Translations under genes and position numbers: made by a program
Shown here: positions 1 through 7,878 of the stretch, in pieces
Layout of the letters: each line of letters begins with the position of its first letter
Position numbering within the stretch: the stretch's first letter is position 1
Virus record (IMG/VR): IMGVR_UViG_2671180283_000022
Source: a virus
Taxonomy: Duplodnaviria > Heunggongvirae > Uroviricota > Caudoviricetes
DNA length: 7,878 bases
Reading direction: 5' to 3' (one strand)
The notes under the pieces: generated by a model
Seen by the model: the letters and a program-made list of their open reading frames with translations, nothing else
Told to the model about the DNA's origin: nothing
Databases searched by the model: none

Positions 1-924
1 TCAGCTTTTCGCCAGAACGGTGACGGCCTTATCGAGTTTTTGCCATCCGCAATAGGTGATTGCCCTGAACGCTGTAGCGTCATTCTGGAAAAGGCTAACC
101 GCCCCTGATTCGGTTTTTATTACCGCCTCATCAGTTGGGGTTATAACCGTGGCTTCAACGTTAATAATCAGCTTTTGAGCGTCTATCAGCATCATGCGAT
201 CCGCCTGTTCGCTCACAATTACCGGTATTCTCAAAAGCTCTATCTGCCAGAACTCAGCATCAGTAAGCTGTAAGGCGTTTTCTACGGGCAAGATTAGCGA
301 CGACGTGGAAAGCGTGTTACCGTTCGCTATGTGCTTTTTGAAAAGCTCTATGAAGTTTTCGGCCTCATCAGCACCATTAAGCACGCCCTCAGGGGATACG
401 CCAGCCACCTCCTTGTCACTGGAAAGAAATTTTTTATCTATTTCTTTCACCGATTCCGATGTGATCAAGTCTCTGATCGCTGAATTGGTGCCAGGGGTGC
501 TAAATTTGATTAGCTCGTTATTCAGCATCACAATAGCGCCAAGTTTGCACAGTTTTAGCGCGCTTTCGTTTACTTCTCCCTCTTTGACAGGGATTTCTTC
601 GGCTTCTTTAAGCCATTTACTACCCTTGCCTGATATTGACTGCAATTTTGCGCCAAACGGAAGATTCAGCCCGCTGCTGATTAGCTTGCCTGGTACAGAC
701 TGCGAAAAAATATACTCACCAAGCTCTCTTACTATCGGCTCTGCCACCAGCGACGGCATATTATCCGTAGTCATTCCGGCAACAATGGATTTTTCAAGAA
801 ATTTCGATACTGCCGGATCATTTCTTTTCGTCATCTCTATAGCGTCTGCATGGCTGAATTTACACGATGTAAGCACGCTGGCGGCGCGAACTGCCGACAC
901 GCCTTTCATGTTTTTAGAAATCAT
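1..924 (-). CDS. phage major capsid protein, HK97-fold family (307 aa, complete)
   Basis: ATG at 924-922, TGA at 3-1; SD AGGAGGAGG about 6 nt upstream of the ATG. Translation shows capsid-family hallmarks: central ...KWLKEAEEIPVKEG...KLGAIVMLNNELIKFS... and C-terminal ...SLFQNDATAFRAITYCGW.... Assigned from motif memory, not a search. Confidence 0.6.
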   Translation of the reverse strand: MISKNMKGVSAVRAASVLTSCKFSHADAIEMTKRNDPAVSKFLEKSIVAGMTTDNMPSLVAEPIVRELGEYIFSQSVPGKLISSGLNLPFGAKLQSISGKGSKWLKEAEEIPVKEGEVNESALKLCKLGAIVMLNNELIKFSTPGTNSAIRDLITSESVKEIDKKFLSSDKEVAGVSPEGVLNGADEAENFIELFKKHIANGNTLSTSSLILPVENALQLTDAEFWQIELLRIPVIVSEQADRMMLIDAQKLIINVEATVITPTDEAVIKTESGAVSLFQNDATAFRAITYCGWQKLDKAVTVLAKS

Positions 925-1075
925 CTTCTTCCTCCTCCTGGAAGCACGGGTTTAGTGTTTCGTGAAAATATGGCATCAGAACAGCGGCGGCCTGTAACCG
1001 TATTTCGGTCGACTGCTGCTTGTCGTTCATGATTTCCGTGAGTACATCAATAGGGTCTGTGATGTATTCGCTCAT
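914..1075 (-). CDS. small hypothetical protein (53 aa, acidic C-terminus), not in the ORF track
   Basis: ATG at 1075-1073 with GAGGT SD about 9 nt upstream; translation MSEYITDPIDVLTEIMNDKQQSTEIRLQAAAVLMPYFHETLNPCFQEEEEDDF; fills the terS-capsid gap and overlaps the capsid start by 11 nt in another frame. Confidence 0.3.
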   Translation of the reverse strand: MSEYITDPIDVLTEIMNDKQQSTEIRLQAAAVLMPYFHETLNPCFQEEEEDDF

Positions 1076-1086
1076 AGTTCGCTACC

Positions 1087-1575
1087 TCAGTGTTTTAAGT
1101 CTGTTGGTGGCTTAGGGATGGGGAACCGATTTGAGTAGACACTAGCGGCATTGAGTTTTTTAACCTCTTTTTTCCCAATGCTGCCGATCTTGCGGTGGGT
1201 GAACTGGGCCAGCTTAAACGCGGCATCTAAAGCCAGTTTTGGATCTGTGTCCATGTTGTCAATCAGTATCCTGCCCATTGCTTTGATGGGGTCGGGTAGG
1301 CCGTTATCCATCATCTCAATGGTGTTAATTGATGCCCGTTCCGGTGTAACTTTTTCGGTAACTTTCTTTGTAACTTTTTTCGGTTTTGTAACCTGAAAAG
1401 TTACATCAGAAGTTACAGCCTTAAGATACTTTTTCACCTCAGGATCGTTGGATAGCTGCCAGCCTTTAACCCTTGCGGTCTTTTCGCTGTATCCCGCATG
1501 TATAGCGGCTTCCGTGGGATTTGCGCCCCTTGATAACGCATCAGCAAACCGCTTTTTTTTGGTCGTTAATGCCAT
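1087..1575 (-). CDS. terS: terminase small subunit (162 aa from ATG 1575; alternative upstream in-frame start at 1707 gives 206 aa)
   Basis: N-terminal ...KKRFADALSRGANPTEAAIHAGYSEKTARVKGWQLSNDPEVKKYL... matches the HTH DNA-binding domain of phage small terminases. ATG 1575 has a GAGG SD about 9 nt upstream; the extra 44 aa of the longer form are low-complexity. Confidence 0.65.
   Translation of the reverse strand: MALTTKKKRFADALSRGANPTEAAIHAGYSEKTARVKGWQLSNDPEVKKYLKAVTSDVTFQVTKPKKVTKKVTEKVTPERASINTIEMMDNGLPDPIKAMGRILIDNMDTDPKLALDAAFKLAQFTHRKIGSIGKKEVKKLNAASVYSNRFPIPKPPTDLKH
1346..1416. repeat. GTAAC/GTTAC repeat array inside terS (four direct GTAAC at 1346, 1358, 1370, 1388; two inverted GTTAC at 1400, 1412); candidate pac or TerS-binding site
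   Basis: Read directly from the sequence; 12-bp phasing for the first three copies (gtaactttt). Confidence 0.5.
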
Positions 1576-1596
1576 GCAAAAACCTCGTTTTGAGGG

Positions 1597-1628
1597 GGTG
1601 TAACTTTTCGTGTAACTTTTTTGAAAAG
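1597..1628. repeat. two further GTGTAACTTTT copies (GTAAC at 1600 and 1612, 12 bp apart) in the terS leader, followed by an inverted GAAAAG
   Basis: Same DNA word as the intragenic array, about 250 bp away. Confidence 0.45.
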
Positions 1629-1703
1629 CAAAATTTTCTACGAATGAGACGGGGGGCGGTGTCCGTGGCGATCGTTTTTTTCGCCGGATGATACCCCCCC
1701 CTG

Positions 1704-1865
1704 TCATTGCTCACCGAGTAACGAGATCAGGCCTTCAACTTCATCACTCAGCTTGTTTATTCGTGTCTCAAGCTCTGCGATCTTTTCCATCAATGGCGCT
1801 ATGGTGTCTCTTGTTTCCTCGCCAATGGCTTTAATGATGCTTGCCTCGCGTTCTGTGATAGCCAT
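1704..1865 (-). CDS. small hypothetical protein (53 aa, coiled-coil-like), not in the ORF track
   Basis: ATG 1865-1863 with GAGG SD 8 nt upstream; translation MAITEREASIIKAIGEETRDTIAPLMEKIAELETRINKLSDEVEGLISLLGEQ. Its stop TGA (1706-1704) overlaps the ATG at 1707-1705 (ATGA) of the long terS frame; the upstream gene stops at 1869. Confidence 0.35.
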   Translation of the reverse strand: MAITEREASIIKAIGEETRDTIAPLMEKIAELETRINKLSDEVEGLISLLGEQ

Positions 1866-2440: not shown

Positions 2441-2645
2441 TCCCCACCTATACCCACTTTTACTACCCACTTTTCACAATTCCCCACCTCGTTAAAGGCG
2501 TGGGATTTGTAATTTTTATCATGCTGTTTCATAAGGATTTTTTTGCTCCCCACTTTTTGGGGTGTATACAGGTCGAAAAGTGGGGAAGCGTGTTTAAATT
2601 TTGTTAAATTCCCCATGCTCCCCACTTTTACTTCCCACTTTTTAC
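2441..2645. repeat. iteron cluster, putative replication origin
   Basis: At least 8 copies of core (t)CCCCAC(t)TTT: 2441-2449, 2452-2462, 2465-2475, 2481-2489, 2547-2558, 2619-2630, 2632-2645, one inverted at 2576-2586 (head-to-head with 2547-2558), and a partial copy at 2609-2615. AT-rich stretches at 2506-2545 and 2592-2610; directly 3' of the replication gene. Confidence 0.6.
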
Positions 2646-4051
2646 AGTGGCCCTACATCATCGCCGTCAACATAGATAACGCCGTCTTTTTCCAGCTTGC
2701 CCAGCCAGCGCCGGAAGTGCTTCATTTCGTATCCCATCTTCTTCATGTCATCACGCAACAGCGGGATCGTGCACTTGTCGCCGTTCTGTGTGCGTGAACG
2801 GATGCACCCCCATAGCGCGGTATGGTTTTCCGTCTTGTTGCCTGCCTCCTCGATGCGCTCCAGTTCAACGGGTGGGCGCGGCTCATCCACCACCACCAGC
2901 GACGTAATTAATTCGCCGTCAGCGTCGGTAAAAAGCTCCACAACCCGCAAATCATAGGCAGCCTCTTTGAGTTCCTCCGCGTCCTTCATTTTGGTGCATG
3001 AGATGACCAGCGCTTCGCTTCCTGCGTCCTCTCTGCGTATCCTGTATTCAGCGTCCAGCGATGCACGGAATGCACTGGAACCACGCGCGCCCTTTGTTTC
3101 ATCCTTGCCGGAATGGTGAACCACCAGCACCGTGGCCCCTGTGCGTCGTTTCAGTTCGTCACATCCACGGATAAACGCCCCCATGTCACGGGAGTCATTT
3201 TCGTCATTGCCGCCAAAGCAACGCGCCAGCGTGTCCAGAATAATCATTAGAACCGGTTTACCCGTTTCCCGCTCAACCTGGCTGGCAGCAATAACCAGTT
3301 CATCAACATCAAGCGGGACAGCCGGAAAGATGGGACGGTTTACAAGGTAAAGATTTTTCACCTGCTCCCCGTGCACAACCTCCCAGGCTTTTACACGACG
3401 CGGAACGCCAATACCGCCTTCACCAACCACATAGAGAACAGCGCCATGCGCCACCCTGCGGCCTCCCCACTGGCGGCCCGTGGAAACGTGACACGCCCAC
3501 GATCCGGCAAGGAATGATTTATAGGAACCGCTCGCCCCGTATATGCTGCAAAGCGACGATGCCGGAATAATCCCCTTTACCACGTAATCAAGCTGCGTGT
3601 CGTATCCGGTAGATCCAACGCTCATCGGTAGCGTGGTTTTTCGCTGGGGGATTTTTTTCATGACCAGGCTTTCCCCGCGTTCCCATGCCTCCCTAAGCCG
3701 TGGAAGCTGGTCGTTCCATTCCTCCAGCAATTCGAAATTTTCAGAAATTAGCCGCGCCTCCTGGACTCCGGCGATCGCCAGTTTCGTGGCGATGGTTAAC
3801 AGCTGCGGCTCTTCAATATTTCCGGCGCGTATCACCGTCGCCCTGTATCGCCCATCATCAACAATCTGGAGGTTATCCAGTTCGCTTAACTGATAACACC
3901 CCAGATAAACGGGGGGGACTGGATCGCCTGCTTTTTTGGCCTGTGCAATGATGTAGTGCTCTGCAAATGAGTGCGCATCATTCCCCGCGAAAATAATTGC
4001 TTCGGTGTATTTGTCTTTCGGTAATCGTTTTACGTTCGGTGCAAGTTTCAT
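2642..4051 (-). CDS. replication protein with RecA-like (AAA_25/RepA-type) P-loop ATPase domain and an N-terminal domain possibly primase-associated (469 aa)
   Basis: Walker A GASGSYKS, Walker B-like VLMIILDTL, and ...VLVVHHSGKDETKGARGSSAF... typical of RepA-like helicases; ATG 4051-4049 overlaps the upstream stop (ATGA); iterons lie immediately downstream. Confidence 0.8.
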   Translation of the reverse strand: MKLAPNVKRLPKDKYTEAIIFAGNDAHSFAEHYIIAQAKKAGDPVPPVYLGCYQLSELDNLQIVDDGRYRATVIRAGNIEEPQLLTIATKLAIAGVQEARLISENFELLEEWNDQLPRLREAWERGESLVMKKIPQRKTTLPMSVGSTGYDTQLDYVVKGIIPASSLCSIYGASGSYKSFLAGSWACHVSTGRQWGGRRVAHGAVLYVVGEGGIGVPRRVKAWEVVHGEQVKNLYLVNRPIFPAVPLDVDELVIAASQVERETGKPVLMIILDTLARCFGGNDENDSRDMGAFIRGCDELKRRTGATVLVVHHSGKDETKGARGSSAFRASLDAEYRIRREDAGSEALVISCTKMKDAEELKEAAYDLRVVELFTDADGELITSLVVVDEPRPPVELERIEEAGNKTENHTALWGCIRSRTQNGDKCTIPLLRDDMKKMGYEMKHFRRWLGKLEKDGVIYVDGDDVGPL

Positions 4052-4347
4052 TTTTTACCCCTGAATACGTTCAACATCTTTCTTATTTCCTGAATATTGG
4101 CGCGTGCTTTCTCCCTGCTGGTTGGCTTACTGCGGGGCGCTGCCTGTACCAGATAAAAATCACGGTCGAACTGATAAACAGGCATAACGCAATCATATTC
4201 GTAGCCTTCACGGCGGTAAGTTACGCGCCGTTCCTCCACGCCCTTAATCATTACCGTTCCGCCGTACTTATCGCGGTAAATATCCCCGCACATGAATTTA
4301 GTGCGAGTTTTGCCGCTGGCAGTTAAGCCAGGATATTTAAGTTTCAT
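4048..4347 (-). CDS. hypothetical protein (99 aa)
   Basis: ATG 4347-4345 with GGAGAA SD; stop TGA overlaps the ATG of the replication gene (ATGA at 4051-4048); no family recognised. Confidence 0.5.
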   Translation of the reverse strand: MKLKYPGLTASGKTRTKFMCGDIYRDKYGGTVMIKGVEERRVTYRREGYEYDCVMPVYQFDRDFYLVQAAPRSKPTSREKARANIQEIRKMLNVFRGKK

Positions 4348-4352
4348 TATTT

Positions 4353-4580
4353 TTATTCTCCGGTGTGGGGCGCTTTATTATTTTCGTGAATTGCCATCGC
4401 CTTATCCAGTTCATCAATTACAGGCGATAGTAATGTCTGAACGGCGGCAAATATTAATGATGCAGGTTCTCCACCATCTTCCGGCACGTCTATTAACTTA
4501 ATTAACAGCGCATTCATTTCGCGCGCTTTAGTTAATGCGTTTTCAGAGTGGCTTAATACTTCAAAAGGGACTTTATTCAT
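4353..4580 (-). CDS. hypothetical protein (75 aa from ATG 4580; track start is GTG 4583)
   Basis: ATG 4580-4578 overlaps the TGA of the upstream paralog (TGATG); AGGGGG about 10 nt upstream; no family recognised. Confidence 0.5.
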   Translation of the reverse strand: MNKVPFEVLSHSENALTKAREMNALLIKLIDVPEDGGEPASLIFAAVQTLLSPVIDELDKAMAIHENNKAPHTGE

Positions 4581-4744
4581 CACAAAACCCCCTGACGAAT
4601 ACGGGCGACAAAAATCAGATGTGCGTGCGGCAGCTGGGCGCGTGCTTCGCGCTCAGTGGCAGCGGTAACGGTGAATACATCAATGCAGCTGTGGTGGCAC
4701 TGCATAAAGCGCCAGACAAAGTAAGGGCGTGCGGATACAGCCAT
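4580..4744 (-). CDS. small protein, paralog 1 (54 aa), motif FVWRF...TEREAR...ARIRQG
   Basis: ATG 4744-4742 with AGGAG SD 8 nt upstream; translation MAVSARPYFVWRFMQCHHSCIDVFTVTAATEREARAQLPHAHLIFVARIRQGVL. About 50% identical to paralog 2, with synonymous differences at conserved residues. May belong to the Icd-like/Ash-like small proteins of P4-like satellites (unverified memory). Confidence 0.55.
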   Translation of the reverse strand: MAVSARPYFVWRFMQCHHSCIDVFTVTAATEREARAQLPHAHLIFVARIRQGVL

Positions 4745-5030
4745 GTGAAAGGCTCCTACAGTAATTTTAAGGAGTCTCGCTACTACGCTGCTAAACGGGG
4801 TGGCGAGACGTAACAGGGTTAGCAGACTGGCACTGTAGGAACCAGCGAGCGCAAAGGCTCCCCCGTTACGCCCCGCCATAATGCGGGTATGGGTAGGCTT
4901 ACGGACACAAAAAAACCGCATATCGGAATATAAGCGGCTGTCCGCTACAGTATTCAGGCTGCTAAACCCGGTCGCCATGTGGGCGACGGGGGAAGCATAC
5001 AGCCCCGTTATAATTTTTTGCAAGCGGTTT
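4745..5030 (-). other. spacer between the paralogs, open in paralog-1 frame; probable decayed third copy or N-terminal extension
   Basis: No stop in the paralog-1 frame over about 95 codons; contains paralog-like remnants (...MRFFCVRK..., ...FSSVVARLLKI...) and two copies of GCTGCTAAAC plus CTACAGTA leader-like words (4756-4810 and 4945-4992). Confidence 0.25.
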
Positions 5031-5228
5031 TTACGCATGATGTGACCCCTGACGAATACGGGCGGCGAATACAGCAACACAACCGGACGGGCAACGGCTA
5101 CGCGCTTCGCGTTCCGTCCAGGCGGTTACGTGGATGATTTGAGATTCTCCGGCACTCAGGGCCAGAAAACGCCACACAAAGGCCGTTTGTGTGTGTACAA
5201 GGTGTGGTATATGATTTACGGCAACCAT
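5031..5228 (-). CDS. small protein, paralog 2 (65 aa), same family as paralog 1
   Basis: ATG 5228-5226 with AGGAG SD 5 nt upstream; translation MVAVNHIPHLVHTQTAFVWRFLALSAGESQIIHVTAWTEREARSRCPSGCVAVFAARIRQGSHHA; first gene of the replication operon. Confidence 0.55.
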   Translation of the reverse strand: MVAVNHIPHLVHTQTAFVWRFLALSAGESQIIHVTAWTEREARSRCPSGCVAVFAARIRQGSHHA

Positions 5229-5257
5229 AACGGCTCCTAGTTTACGTTGTTGGTTAG

Positions 5258-5301
5258 AAGCCCTGCGAGTGGTAATGACACTTGCGGGGCTTTGCTTTTT
5301 T
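5258..5301 (+). terminator. plus-strand hairpin terminator in the divergent intergenic region
   Basis: 14-bp stem 5258-5271/5279-5292 with 7-nt loop; the two non-Watson-Crick positions are G-U wobbles on the plus RNA but C-A mismatches on the minus RNA; followed on plus by tgctttttt (5293-5301). Confidence 0.45.
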
Positions 5302-5318
5302 AAGTGCTCTTGTGTTAA

Positions 5319-5362
5319 GGTGACCACCTAACAATGGAAAGGCTAATTCAATAGGTGACCAC
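5319..5362. promoter_or_regulatory. direct repeats GGTGACCAC (5319-5327 and 5354-5362), candidate operator in the divergent promoter region
   Basis: Two exact 9-bp copies 35 bp apart, each followed by a yT...AACAA tail, immediately upstream of the Arc-like gene and facing the replication operon; exact hexamers not resolved. Confidence 0.3.
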
Positions 5363-5933: not shown

Positions 5934-6140
5934 TTAAGCAGCCGTTCCGCGTGCTTCCTGTTCGCGTTCTTTCTGCCAGGCCAACACATCATCCTCATAC
6001 CATCCGCGACGGCGTAAACCAACGCGAAAACCCTGCGGAAATTCTCCGGCGTTGATCATGCTTTGCAGCGTGCTGTCTGCCTTGATGTGGATAATTTTTT
6101 TTACTTCCTGGCGAAAGATAATTTTTCTGATTGCTTCCAT
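5934..6140 (-). CDS. alpA: AlpA-family transcriptional regulator / excisionase-like HTH protein (68 aa)
   Basis: ATG 6140-6138 with AAGGT SD; ...IKADSTLQSMINAGEFPQGFRVGLRRRGWYEDDVLAWQ... fits the AlpA HTH pattern (S-T-hydrophobic, G-x-F-P, G-W). Confidence 0.75.
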   Translation of the reverse strand: MEAIRKIIFRQEVKKIIHIKADSTLQSMINAGEFPQGFRVGLRRRGWYEDDVLAWQKEREQEARGTAA

Positions 6141-6636: not shown

Positions 6637-7878
6637 CTACACGGCTCGGATACCCCTTTTACCACTGGCGAGGGTTACGCCCGTCGCCGCAGCCTCGACA
6701 AATTCGCCCCACCAGCGCATCAGCACGATGCGTTTTTCTATGTAGTTGCTCCGGTTGTATGCCCGTCTAACTTCGTTGGTGTCGACGTGGGCAAGTGCCG
6801 CCTCTATTACGTCCGGCTCGAATCCTTCCTCGTTCGCTGCTGTGCTGAATATGGCGCGTAATCCATGAGACACCAGCACGCCAGCGAATCCCATACGCCG
6901 CAATGCTGCGTTAGCTGTCTGGCTGTTCATCGGCTGCTGTGGGTCTTTCAGACTTGGGAAAACGTAATTGCGGTGGTGGCTGATTGGTTTCATGGCCTCC
7001 AGCACCGCCATAGCCTGACCGGAAAGCGGGATAACGTGATCCCTGCGCATCTTCATGCGTCCGGCAGGTATCGTCCATTGCTTCGCGTCCAGGTTGATTT
7101 CATCCCACCGCGTTGATGACGCTTCGGCGGGACGGGTTACGGTCAGTAACTGCCATTCAATCAGTAATCTGGTCTGCCGTTCTGTTGCCGATACTGATAA
7201 AGCCTGCATAAGCTCCGGCAGCTGTTCGGGGCGGATTGTTGGCATATGTTTTTTTACAGGTGAGGGAAACGCCTTACGCACATTCATAGCCGGATTGGCA
7301 TCAATCAGCCCACTGTTGGCGGCGTAATCCATTACCTCATTAACGCGCTGTAAAACCCGCTTGAGTGTTTCCAGGTTGCCGCGCTCCTTGATGGGGGTAA
7401 GCACTTCAACGAACCTTCGGGCGGTGAGGGTATCTATTGGCGTGTTGCCGATGAACGGGAATACATATTTATCCAGCGAACGCCAGATGTCTTTAATCGT
7501 GTTGGGGGCCAGATTCTGGCTGATTTTCACCTGGTACCATGCCGCCGCCACATTTTCGAACGTGTTCCCTTGTCTTCGGGCCTCTGTCTCTCTTTTTTGC
7601 CTCTCGTGGTCCTGCGGGTCAGTTCCGGCACTGATTAACGTCCTGTACTCGCTACGGCGTTTTCTGGCATCAGCCAGGGAAACATCTTCAAGCGATCCAA
7701 AACTCAGCAATATTCTTTTTTTGTCCGATGGTCGGTAGTAGGAAAATCTCCAGAGTTTTGATCCAGACGGTTTGACCAGGAGAAAAAGCCCTCCGCCGTC
7801 CTGCAGGGTGTACTCCTTTTGCGCTGGTCTGGCTGCTTTGATCTGCACTGTGGTTAATGGGTGTGTTTTTCTCGCCAT
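6637..7878 (-). CDS. int: P4-type tyrosine integrase (413 aa, complete; ATG is the last triplet of the window)
   Basis: N-terminal arm-binding signature ...LTTVQIKAARPAQKEYTLQDGGGLFLLVKPSGSKLWRFSYY...; C-terminal catalytic region with ...HGLRA... and ...RAYNRSNY... (putative catalytic Tyr); stop TAG at 6639-6637. Confidence 0.9.
   Translation of the reverse strand: MARKTHPLTTVQIKAARPAQKEYTLQDGGGLFLLVKPSGSKLWRFSYYRPSDKKRILLSFGSLEDVSLADARKRRSEYRTLISAGTDPQDHERQKRETEARRQGNTFENVAAAWYQVKISQNLAPNTIKDIWRSLDKYVFPFIGNTPIDTLTARRFVEVLTPIKERGNLETLKRVLQRVNEVMDYAANSGLIDANPAMNVRKAFPSPVKKHMPTIRPEQLPELMQALSVSATERQTRLLIEWQLLTVTRPAEASSTRWDEINLDAKQWTIPAGRMKMRRDHVIPLSGQAMAVLEAMKPISHHRNYVFPSLKDPQQPMNSQTANAALRRMGFAGVLVSHGLRAIFSTAANEEGFEPDVIEAALAHVDTNEVRRAYNRSNYIEKRIVLMRWWGEFVEAAATGVTLASGKRGIRAV

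Follow-up and report, generated by a model that had tools for sequence, protein, structure and literature searches.

Judged by comparison with related loci, the short words repeated within and just ahead of the small-terminase gene (terS) on the stretch of DNA analysed here (the window, 7,878 nucleotides in full) are a real and functionally constrained feature. Probably they are a recognition array like cosB in a cos-type phage satellite (PICI), distinct from the GTTAACAT array of Stx phages, and their co-occurrence with TerS and their position point to this protein as their reader. An earlier note on this DNA had tentatively taken the words for a packaging-specificity site beside and inside terS, a candidate pac or TerS-binding site. 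A packaging-specificity site at this place is strongly supported by the relatives, but the pac part of the claim had to be given up, as the relatives indicate a cos with 3' cohesive ends and a cosB-like array. The coordinates of the features are collected in Table 1.

Table 1. Features in the window, with positions in nucleotides of the window; the cohesive end and the cut are predicted.
Feature	Position	Strand	Remarks
Capsid-family protein	1-924	-	307 aa; last gene of the island
53-aa ORF	914-1075	-	
terS, small terminase	1087-1575	-	162 aa; Pfam PF03592, phrog_641, RefSeq annotation
In-gene direct array	1345-1392	-	four words in leader orientation; codons 62-77, V-T of QVTKPKKVTKKVTEKVT
In-gene inverted pair	1397-1417	+	AAAGTTACA and GAAGTTACA, 12 bp apart; codons 54-59
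Leader array	1598-1622	-	words AAAAAAGTTACAC and GAAAAGTTACAC, 12 bp apart, at +33 and +45 from the predicted cut
cos core common to Stx-type HNH-cos phages	1622-1708	unassigned	sequence identity; inverted repeat flanking the cut
Predicted 10-nt cohesive-end sequence	1649-1658	-	CGCCCCCCGT; homologue of the terminal CGCCCCCCCT of Lys8385Vzw
RepA/AAA_25 helicase	2642-4051	-	
DUF4222 protein	4048-4347	-	
AlpA-like regulator	5934-6140	-	weak Pfam match (17.6 bits, below the cut-off of 21); phrog_66, 5.5e-07
Integrase (int)	6637-7878	-	

Eight GTAAC/GTTAC words lie within 1346-1616, all of them where the earlier note had placed them: six on the plus strand (1346, 1358, 1370, 1388, 1600 and 1612) and two on the minus strand (1400 and 1412). 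As a bare 5-mer, GTAAC occurs 22 times in the window against 11.1 copies expected (about 2-fold), and 8 of the 22 fall within 271 bp; over the whole window this enrichment is marginal, with 2 of 200 shuffles reaching 22. The extended word AAAGTTACA (TGTAACTTT on the plus strand) is found ten times when up to one mismatch is allowed, compared to 1.82 copies expected and none of 200 shuffles reaching this number, and seven of these ten copies lie within 1345-1619. This extended word is the true repeat unit and clearly non-random. Nearly every copy is preceded by an A-tract. Tandem Repeats Finder delimits 12-bp arrays at 1346-1384 and 1598-1620; the same 12-bp spacing separates the leader pair, the inverted pair within the gene and the direct copies at 1346, 1358 and 1370, while the fourth direct copy (1388) follows 18 bp on. 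Repeats above chance and in defined orientations, as a cosB-type array would have, are thus present, and the leader array is a candidate for the proximal cosB-like site. Inside the gene, the earlier note had read the word as the Val-Thr of a KKVT linker. The four direct words do encode this pair, always as GTT-ACA or GTT-ACC, and the inverted pair encodes the V-T of AVTSDVTF with the codons GTA-ACT.

The DNA adjoining the array resembles phage cos sites. Positions 1622-1701 are 85-91% identical to a non-coding stretch in 94 records of Stx-converting or related lambdoid phages, where it always lies in the spacer between HNH ('DNase') and terS; the best piece reaches 93.9% over 49 bp, and a core of about 55 bp directly upstream of terS is about 90% identical. 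In the record of phage Lys8385Vzw, which ends with ...GGACACCGCCCCCCCT and starts with CTCACGCAGAGAAAAAAT (restart CTCACGC), the junction falls inside this core, and PhageTerm analysis of this phage gave cos with 3' cohesive ends, CGCCCCCCCT (PMC7946995). Since CGCCCCCCGT is homologous to the Lys8385Vzw end, the cut in the window is predicted at 1648|1649, a position transferred from this one PhageTerm result. The packaged left end would, as predicted, start with CTCATTCG and run toward terS, and the array adjoins the cohesive-end cut, placed by homology to Lys8385Vzw, on its terS side. A 14-nt inverted repeat (I7; 1643-1656 and 1695-1708, AATGAGACGGGGGG and CCCCCCCTGTCATT, 86%), made up of a G-run and a C-run, brackets the core. 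The predicted cut falls inside one arm of it, and the pair of runs is kept in all relatives. A likeness of GGGGCGGTGTCC to the lambda sequence GGGCGGCGACCT was set aside, as it runs the opposite way with respect to terS and the overhangs of the relatives are 3' rather than 5'. A full-text literature search for the cohesive-end 10-mers returned nothing relevant. Near-identical satellite copies differ sharply in approximately 35 bp upstream of the cohesive end (1659-1700; leaders L089-L099): the window reads ATCATCCGGCGAAAAAAACGATCGCC, like Stx phages, most metagenome copies read AGTGTTCCGGCCGGAAAGTCGATCGCC, and the G-run varies from 7 to 11 among the satellite copies. The alternative variant matches the same Stx phages at a lower identity of 81-84%. 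The differences between the copies point to mosaic exchange at the termination (cosQ-like) side of cos.

For comparison, the DNA of TerS homologues with 49-65% amino acid identity was collected, and leaders as well as genes were read; the lineages are few (about ten) and related, and the counts given for them do not represent independent events. The first word starts +33 to +35 from the predicted cut in 12 of 12 lineages, whatever the word is and with the Stx phages included. Counted from the predicted cut of the window, the leader words are followed by the ATG at +74 and by the in-gene cluster at +233 to +299. Stx phages carry five GTTAACAT words at +34, +42, +110, +133 and +148, all within their 228-bp leader; in an alignment of the window with Stx2a_WGPS8, the core is in common and is followed by completely different arrays. 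The GTTAC type comprises the window, a Hafnia prophage with the layout HNH-terS-terL-protease/capsid (L003), an E. coli satellite that has six copies in the leader and whose inverted copies in the gene are degraded (L006), a Salmonella satellite (L009/L010), L011, L104 and L105. In all of these, the leader contains AAAAGTTACAC and two to four copies fall within codons 52-77, and the in-gene layout of inverted followed by direct copies recurs in L003, L009, L011, L104, L105 and also L100, but not in L006. Two lineages are of a GTTAAC type. L100 has one leader copy, AAAAAAGTTAACCCC, and five GTTAAC copies in the gene, which give the peptide KVNPKVNPKVN, except that the first gene copy is read in another frame (aGG-TTA-ACT, R-L-T). 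The phage L106 has two leader copies, GTTAACCC, and one gene copy. In the Arsenophonus phage L102, of a TCAACAT type, TCAACATTT is present in leader and gene. A change of the leader word from GTTAC to GTTAAC or TCAACAT is, therefore, accompanied by a change within the gene, with KVT becoming KVN in the case of GTTAAC. All loci that carry the words have TerS and the cos core in common but no other feature, and across about ten lineages the array type (GTTAC, GTTAAC(C), TCAACAT or GTTAACAT) tracks the TerS lineage over a common core.

Further searches contributed little to this comparison. A profile search of genome contigs with the TerS alignment and a DNA-pattern search with the degenerate AGYSEKTARVKG gave no matches, the metagenome scan returned almost only near-identical E. 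coli copies of little comparative value, and the scan of IMG/VR found only copies at 96-100% identity or Stx-type TerS at 40-47%. A truncated 5' part of terS from a food metagenome (L098) has both inverted words changed from GTAAC to GTTAC and one direct word lost, which may be decay or sequencing error given its low coverage of 4.4x.

That the word is conserved at the level of DNA, as the earlier note had argued, was borne out by the relatives, by synonymous codons and by the concerted change of leader and gene. In an unbiased search for 7-mers common to leader and gene, the top word was that lineage's own word every time and lay in codons 52-76; the same search in a Stx phage found no comparable leader/gene word. 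Of the 28 V-T pairs in the linker, all have GTT or GTA for V and 26 have ACA or ACT for T; outside the linker, these genes use V and T codons without such restriction. Pairwise codon identity in columns with conserved amino acids is 0.94 in the words and 0.51 outside them, and only 0.24-0.27 for V and T outside. The finding named in advance as fatal to DNA-level conservation, a KKVT peptide kept with scrambled codons and no leader copies, is the opposite of what was observed: the codons are not scrambled and the leader copies are kept. These comparisons, made at the sequence level, show selection on the word as DNA, and the KVT-repeat linker peptide would largely be a by-product of the overlapping DNA site.

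One argument of the earlier note for frame-independence failed. It had read the leader copies in a second frame, as Ser-Tyr of a long ORF at 1087-1707 (206 aa), but this ORF is spurious. RefSeq annotates a 162-aa gene equivalent to 1087-1575, all homologues begin with M(A)LTTKKK, the annotated and conserved start is the ATG at 1575 with GAGG just before it, and the extension of the 206-aa ORF runs across the cos core. As this extension is not real coding sequence, the leader copies are non-coding. Frame-independence itself nevertheless has a genuine case in the other-frame copy of L100. A sigma-70-like promoter was looked for in the terS leader and none was found; an operator role of the words was, therefore, set aside.

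The product of terS matches Pfam PF03592 with 42.4 bits (cut-off 26.1) and phrog_641 with 1.5e-43. In the AlphaFold2 model, a four-helix N-domain (residues 5-58, pLDDT approx. 90) is followed by a stretch with pLDDT below 50 (residues 59-83) and a helical core (residues 96-126), and the N-domain superposes on the SF6 G1P DNA-binding domain 4zc3 with a TM score of 0.87, an rmsd of 1.5 Å and 30% identity. TerS is accordingly modelled as a Terminase_2 protein of the SF6-SPP1 G1P-like kind, with a helix-turn-helix N-domain, a predicted disordered linker and a helical core. A sequence search with TerS against PDB gave no significant match, and the HK97 TerS is not a sequence relative; none of the deposited phages searched has the satellite TerS type, the best match being 47%. 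Since the words lie in codons for the end of helix 4 and the flexible linker, the linker peptide can follow the DNA. The number of direct in-gene units differs within E. coli, with four in the window (162 aa), three in P0004 (158 aa) and two in P0003 (154 aa). This variation by 12-bp units fits slippage in the array, and it follows that not every in-gene copy is needed.

Four other explanations of the repeats were weighed. Selection might act on the peptide only, i.e., on a (K)VT-rich basic linker grown by 12-bp slippage, with the leader copies as chance or hitch-hiking duplicates. In favour of this, each unit spans four codons, the number of units differs within E. coli, and relatives retain the KVT peptide. 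However, the restricted V and T codons of the linker beside free V/T codons elsewhere do not fit such an origin, nor do the non-coding leader copies found in every lineage at a fixed position, the replacement of KVT by KVN when the leader word changes, the L100 copy in another frame, or the A-run flank which the inverted copies keep through unrelated amino acids (D-V-T-F vs. K-K-V-T). This explanation is hardly credible and, at the sequence level, already contradicted by the comparative data. The repeats could also be a headful pac site, where TerS would bind and TerL would start headful packaging with an imprecise cut; in many pac phages (P22, SPP1, P1), pac is located in or beside terS, and the TerS fold is that of the pac phages SPP1 and SF6. 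The adjoining core, however, corresponds by homology to the genome ends of a phage whose 3' cohesive ends are defined, and the phage relatives have the layout HNH-terS-terL, which is typical of cos packaging in HK97-like phages. Judged from these relatives (the Lys8385Vzw ends and the layout), the site does not have the properties of a headful pac site, which makes this explanation very improbable.

In a third explanation, the inverted and direct in-gene copies pair as a hairpin in the terS mRNA (or in single-strand DNA), perhaps together with the 5' leader, and control translation or stability. The minus strand over 1335-1425 has a minimum free energy of -23 kcal/mol (z = -2.98; 2 of 200 shuffles fold as well), but z is only -1.72 over the whole stretch of leader and gene. 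The leader copies are 84% complementary to the inverted ones (I1), relatives repeat the layout of inverted and direct copies, and pairing survives the switch from GTTAC to GTTAAC; yet direct copies outnumber inverted ones (4+2 vs. 2 in the window), so that most copies have no partner, L106 has a single in-gene copy with two direct leader copies, and L006 combines its six leader copies with degraded inverted ones. Further, the exact word is kept beyond pairing across lineages at 50-65% identity, the analogous words of Stx phages are in non-coding DNA only, and the fixed start of the first copy at +33 to +35 from the cos cut would be left unexplained. The unpaired direct copies, the lineages with a single in-gene copy and the fixed distance from the cut speak for a site in duplex DNA, and we consider a hairpin quite unlikely. 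A DNA site for a factor other than TerS (helper HNH or TerL, a host bending protein or a satellite regulator), or phased A-tracts that curve the cos DNA, would account for the 12-bp phasing and the A-tracts before nearly every copy, and for the barely co-varying recognition-helix residues of TerS; recognition in SPP1 and HK97 also depends partly on DNA shape. Against such a factor, the word-bearing loci have only TerS and the cos core in common, and the upstream gene is HNH in the phages, where the satellites have small ORFs of coiled-coil or RHH-like type; the element in the window has no HNH or terL gene and its leader no sigma-70-like promoter. Curvature alone would not conserve GTTAC as opposed to GTTAAC, and the core GTTA(A)C is common across a TerS family with a conserved helix-turn-helix. 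This explanation, too, is unlikely.

The gene content of the element fits the cosB-like array of a satellite. All genes in the window are on the minus strand. E. coli CD45 (NZ_CP182220) carries the same element at 96% identity, as an island of about 9 kb bounded by yejO and tRNA-Pro, and terL, HNH, portal, tail and lysis genes are absent from the element, as read from this island. As an island of about 9 kb at a tRNA site, with int, an AlpA-like regulator, a replication module with iterons, and neither tail nor lysis genes, the element is a classical-size PICI-type satellite (PICIs measure approximately 9-10 kb). A capsid-forming PICI was considered and rejected, since the island stops right after the capsid-like gene and lacks terL, portal and protease genes. 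The protein at 1-924 aligns with the capsid half of the protease-capsid fusion of Stx phages at 24% identity (E = 2e-20); it parallels Ccm of SaPIbov5, which redirects capsid size. Both terS and a capsid-like gene are among the core components of PICIs in SatelliteFinder (PMC10085698), so this gene content as such is already known. The iterons are six exact copies of CCCACTTTT at 2453-2642, five on the plus strand and one inverted. They lie directly 3' of the RepA helicase gene, the place expected for PICI replication-origin iterons, and overlap an ORF at 2194-2625 (phrog_1231).

Some smaller ORFs were noted in addition. The 53-aa ORF between terS and the capsid-like gene resembles two TerS core helices (phrog_641 positions 89-125; 41% identity to residues 81-117 of P0019) and ends with an acidic tail, EEEEDDF. 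Satellites L010, L011, L100 and L105 have an ORF of 49-53 aa at this position, and L104 has one between terS and terL; the product could act as a partner of the TerS ring or as a decoy that interferes with packaging. Directly upstream of the cos core, two small ORFs at 1869-2063 and 1704-1865 (minus strand) appear by eye to encode a ribbon-helix-helix-like protein (64 aa) and a coiled coil (53 aa; weak TSC22 match), respectively; a terminator-like hairpin at 2175-2158 precedes them, and the same pair precedes cos in the Salmonella satellite L009. At 4580-5330 (minus strand) lie two neighbouring ORFs whose annotation in relatives is that of Icd-like cell-division inhibitors, and their similar C-terminal ends (...REARAQLPHAHLIFVARIRQGVL and ...REARSRCPSGCVAVFAARIRQGS) suggest a tandem duplication.

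Of 5426 complete E. coli genomes, 220 contain the block at this locus; the 12 listed as examples include several of the Shiga-toxin serotypes O157:H7, O26:H11 or O111:H2. Together with the match of the cos core, the capsid homologue and TerS cores that are 46% identical, these serotypes make Stx-type HK97-like phages the likely helpers. Induction, packaging and transfer of the element by a helper phage are so far only suggested by the sequence.

For the cosB-like array, the following mechanism is proposed. The satellite TerS, a ring-type oligomer with outward-facing helix-turn-helix domains, would bind the phased words and thereby position the helper's TerL and HNH on the common cosN; satellite concatemers would be cut at 1648|1649 and packaged toward terS, and the helper's own TerS would prefer the GTTAACAT array. 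As the likely helpers use this different array, the satellite would have its own packaging address on the helper's cutting site. Discrimination between the two arrays is a proposal only, because the recognition helix (residues AGYSxKTARVKG) is nearly the same in TerS of the GTTAC type as in the GTTAACAT-type TerS of Stx phages. The isolated DNA-binding domain of SF6 G1P binds DNA weakly and non-specifically in vitro, and the 'box' repeats of SPP1 did not explain binding (PMC4737164). With SF6 as the closest structural relative, this non-specific binding counts against recognition of the words by TerS. In HK97, specificity comes from terminal segments and from DNA shape (PMC11331095).

Taken further, and more tentatively, it is possible that the packaging address overlaps the gene of its own reader, with the distal half of the array lying in the linker codons of TerS. 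A one-base change of the word, from GTTAC to GTTAAC, would then alter the linker peptide (KVT to KVN) together with the leader site. Should the single-base difference from the helper's GTTAACAT be what separates packaging of satellite and helper, the family would be a natural series of orthogonal cos addresses on one cutting site, and the proximal (+34) and distal (+225 to +300) clusters could anchor a DNA loop wrapped on the TerS ring.

To our knowledge, HK97 is the only phage for which details are known of how HNH-dependent, HK97-like cos phages, or satellites of such phages, select the DNA to be packaged. The solutions of satellites described in the literature we found are to carry the helper's cos, to encode a TerS for pac, or to use Rpp; the present locus points to a fourth combination, an own TerS and an own cosB on a borrowed cosN. 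In a limited literature search, neither these repeats nor this cos architecture were found described, and the combination of a cos-type, HNH-dependent helper family, a full satellite TerS of SF6 fold and an array that extends into linker codons differs from the systems described. The natural word variants (GTTAC, GTTAAC, TCAACAT and GTTAACAT), all starting from +33 to +35, are ready-made material for specificity swaps. Further, the site is a clear example of a predicted DNA-binding site that dictates the sequence of a protein linker.

Compared with known systems, the locus combines several features. The minimal TerS site of HK97 is 15 bp long, lies at +15 to +29 and consists of an A-tract plus a specific G (PMC11331095). 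HK97 shares with the present locus an HNH-assisted cos with a 10-nt 3' overhang (predicted here) and a site a few helical turns past the cut, with an A-tract followed by G; in contrast to its single site and unrelated TerS sequence, multiple phased words and a distal in-gene cluster are found here. The pac region of SPP1/SF6 (pacL-pacC-pacR) is similar in the fold class of TerS, in A-tract-rich DNA and in repeats that flank the cleavage site and reach into terS. The SPP1 box repeats span promoters and the start of the terS gene and are dispensable for binding of the DNA-binding domain in vitro (PMC4737164). SPP1 packages by headful, however, whereas the repeats described here lie in linker codons about 225-300 bp from the cut and co-vary across lineages.

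Among satellites, SaPIs encode a TerS homologue (TerS_S) which redirects the helper's TerL to satellite DNA, as proposed here, and the cos SaPI SaPIbov5 has a capsid-protein homologue (Ccm) like the present element. The SaPI TerS works in headful (pac) packaging, and the cos SaPIs we know of carry the helper's cos and no TerS; the present element, in contrast, joins its own TerS with a cos site. In lambda, cosB consists of the sites R3, R2 and R1, which are bound by gpNu1. Like lambda cosB, and also like the E. coli PICI EcCICFT073, the locus has words that recur in either orientation beside cosN, on its terS side. Lambda differs in several respects: the helper family here is HNH-dependent and HK97-like with 3' overhangs, whereas lambda-like phages have 5' overhangs; TerS is of the Terminase_2/SF6 fold instead of the winged helix of gpNu1; and most copies here are inside terS, with no IHF site identified. 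In redirection of the Rpp type, the small protein Rpp heterodimerises with the helper's TerS. The 53-aa ORF resembles TerS core helices and is thereby set apart from the Rpp helix-turn-helix by the description of the latter (PMC6739421). In EcCICFT073, a cosB swap is combined with Rpp (PMC6739421; PMC9026076). A complete TerS is encoded here in place of this adaptor, but both satellites keep a helper-like cosN and carry a different recognition array, which would serve as the satellite's own packaging address.
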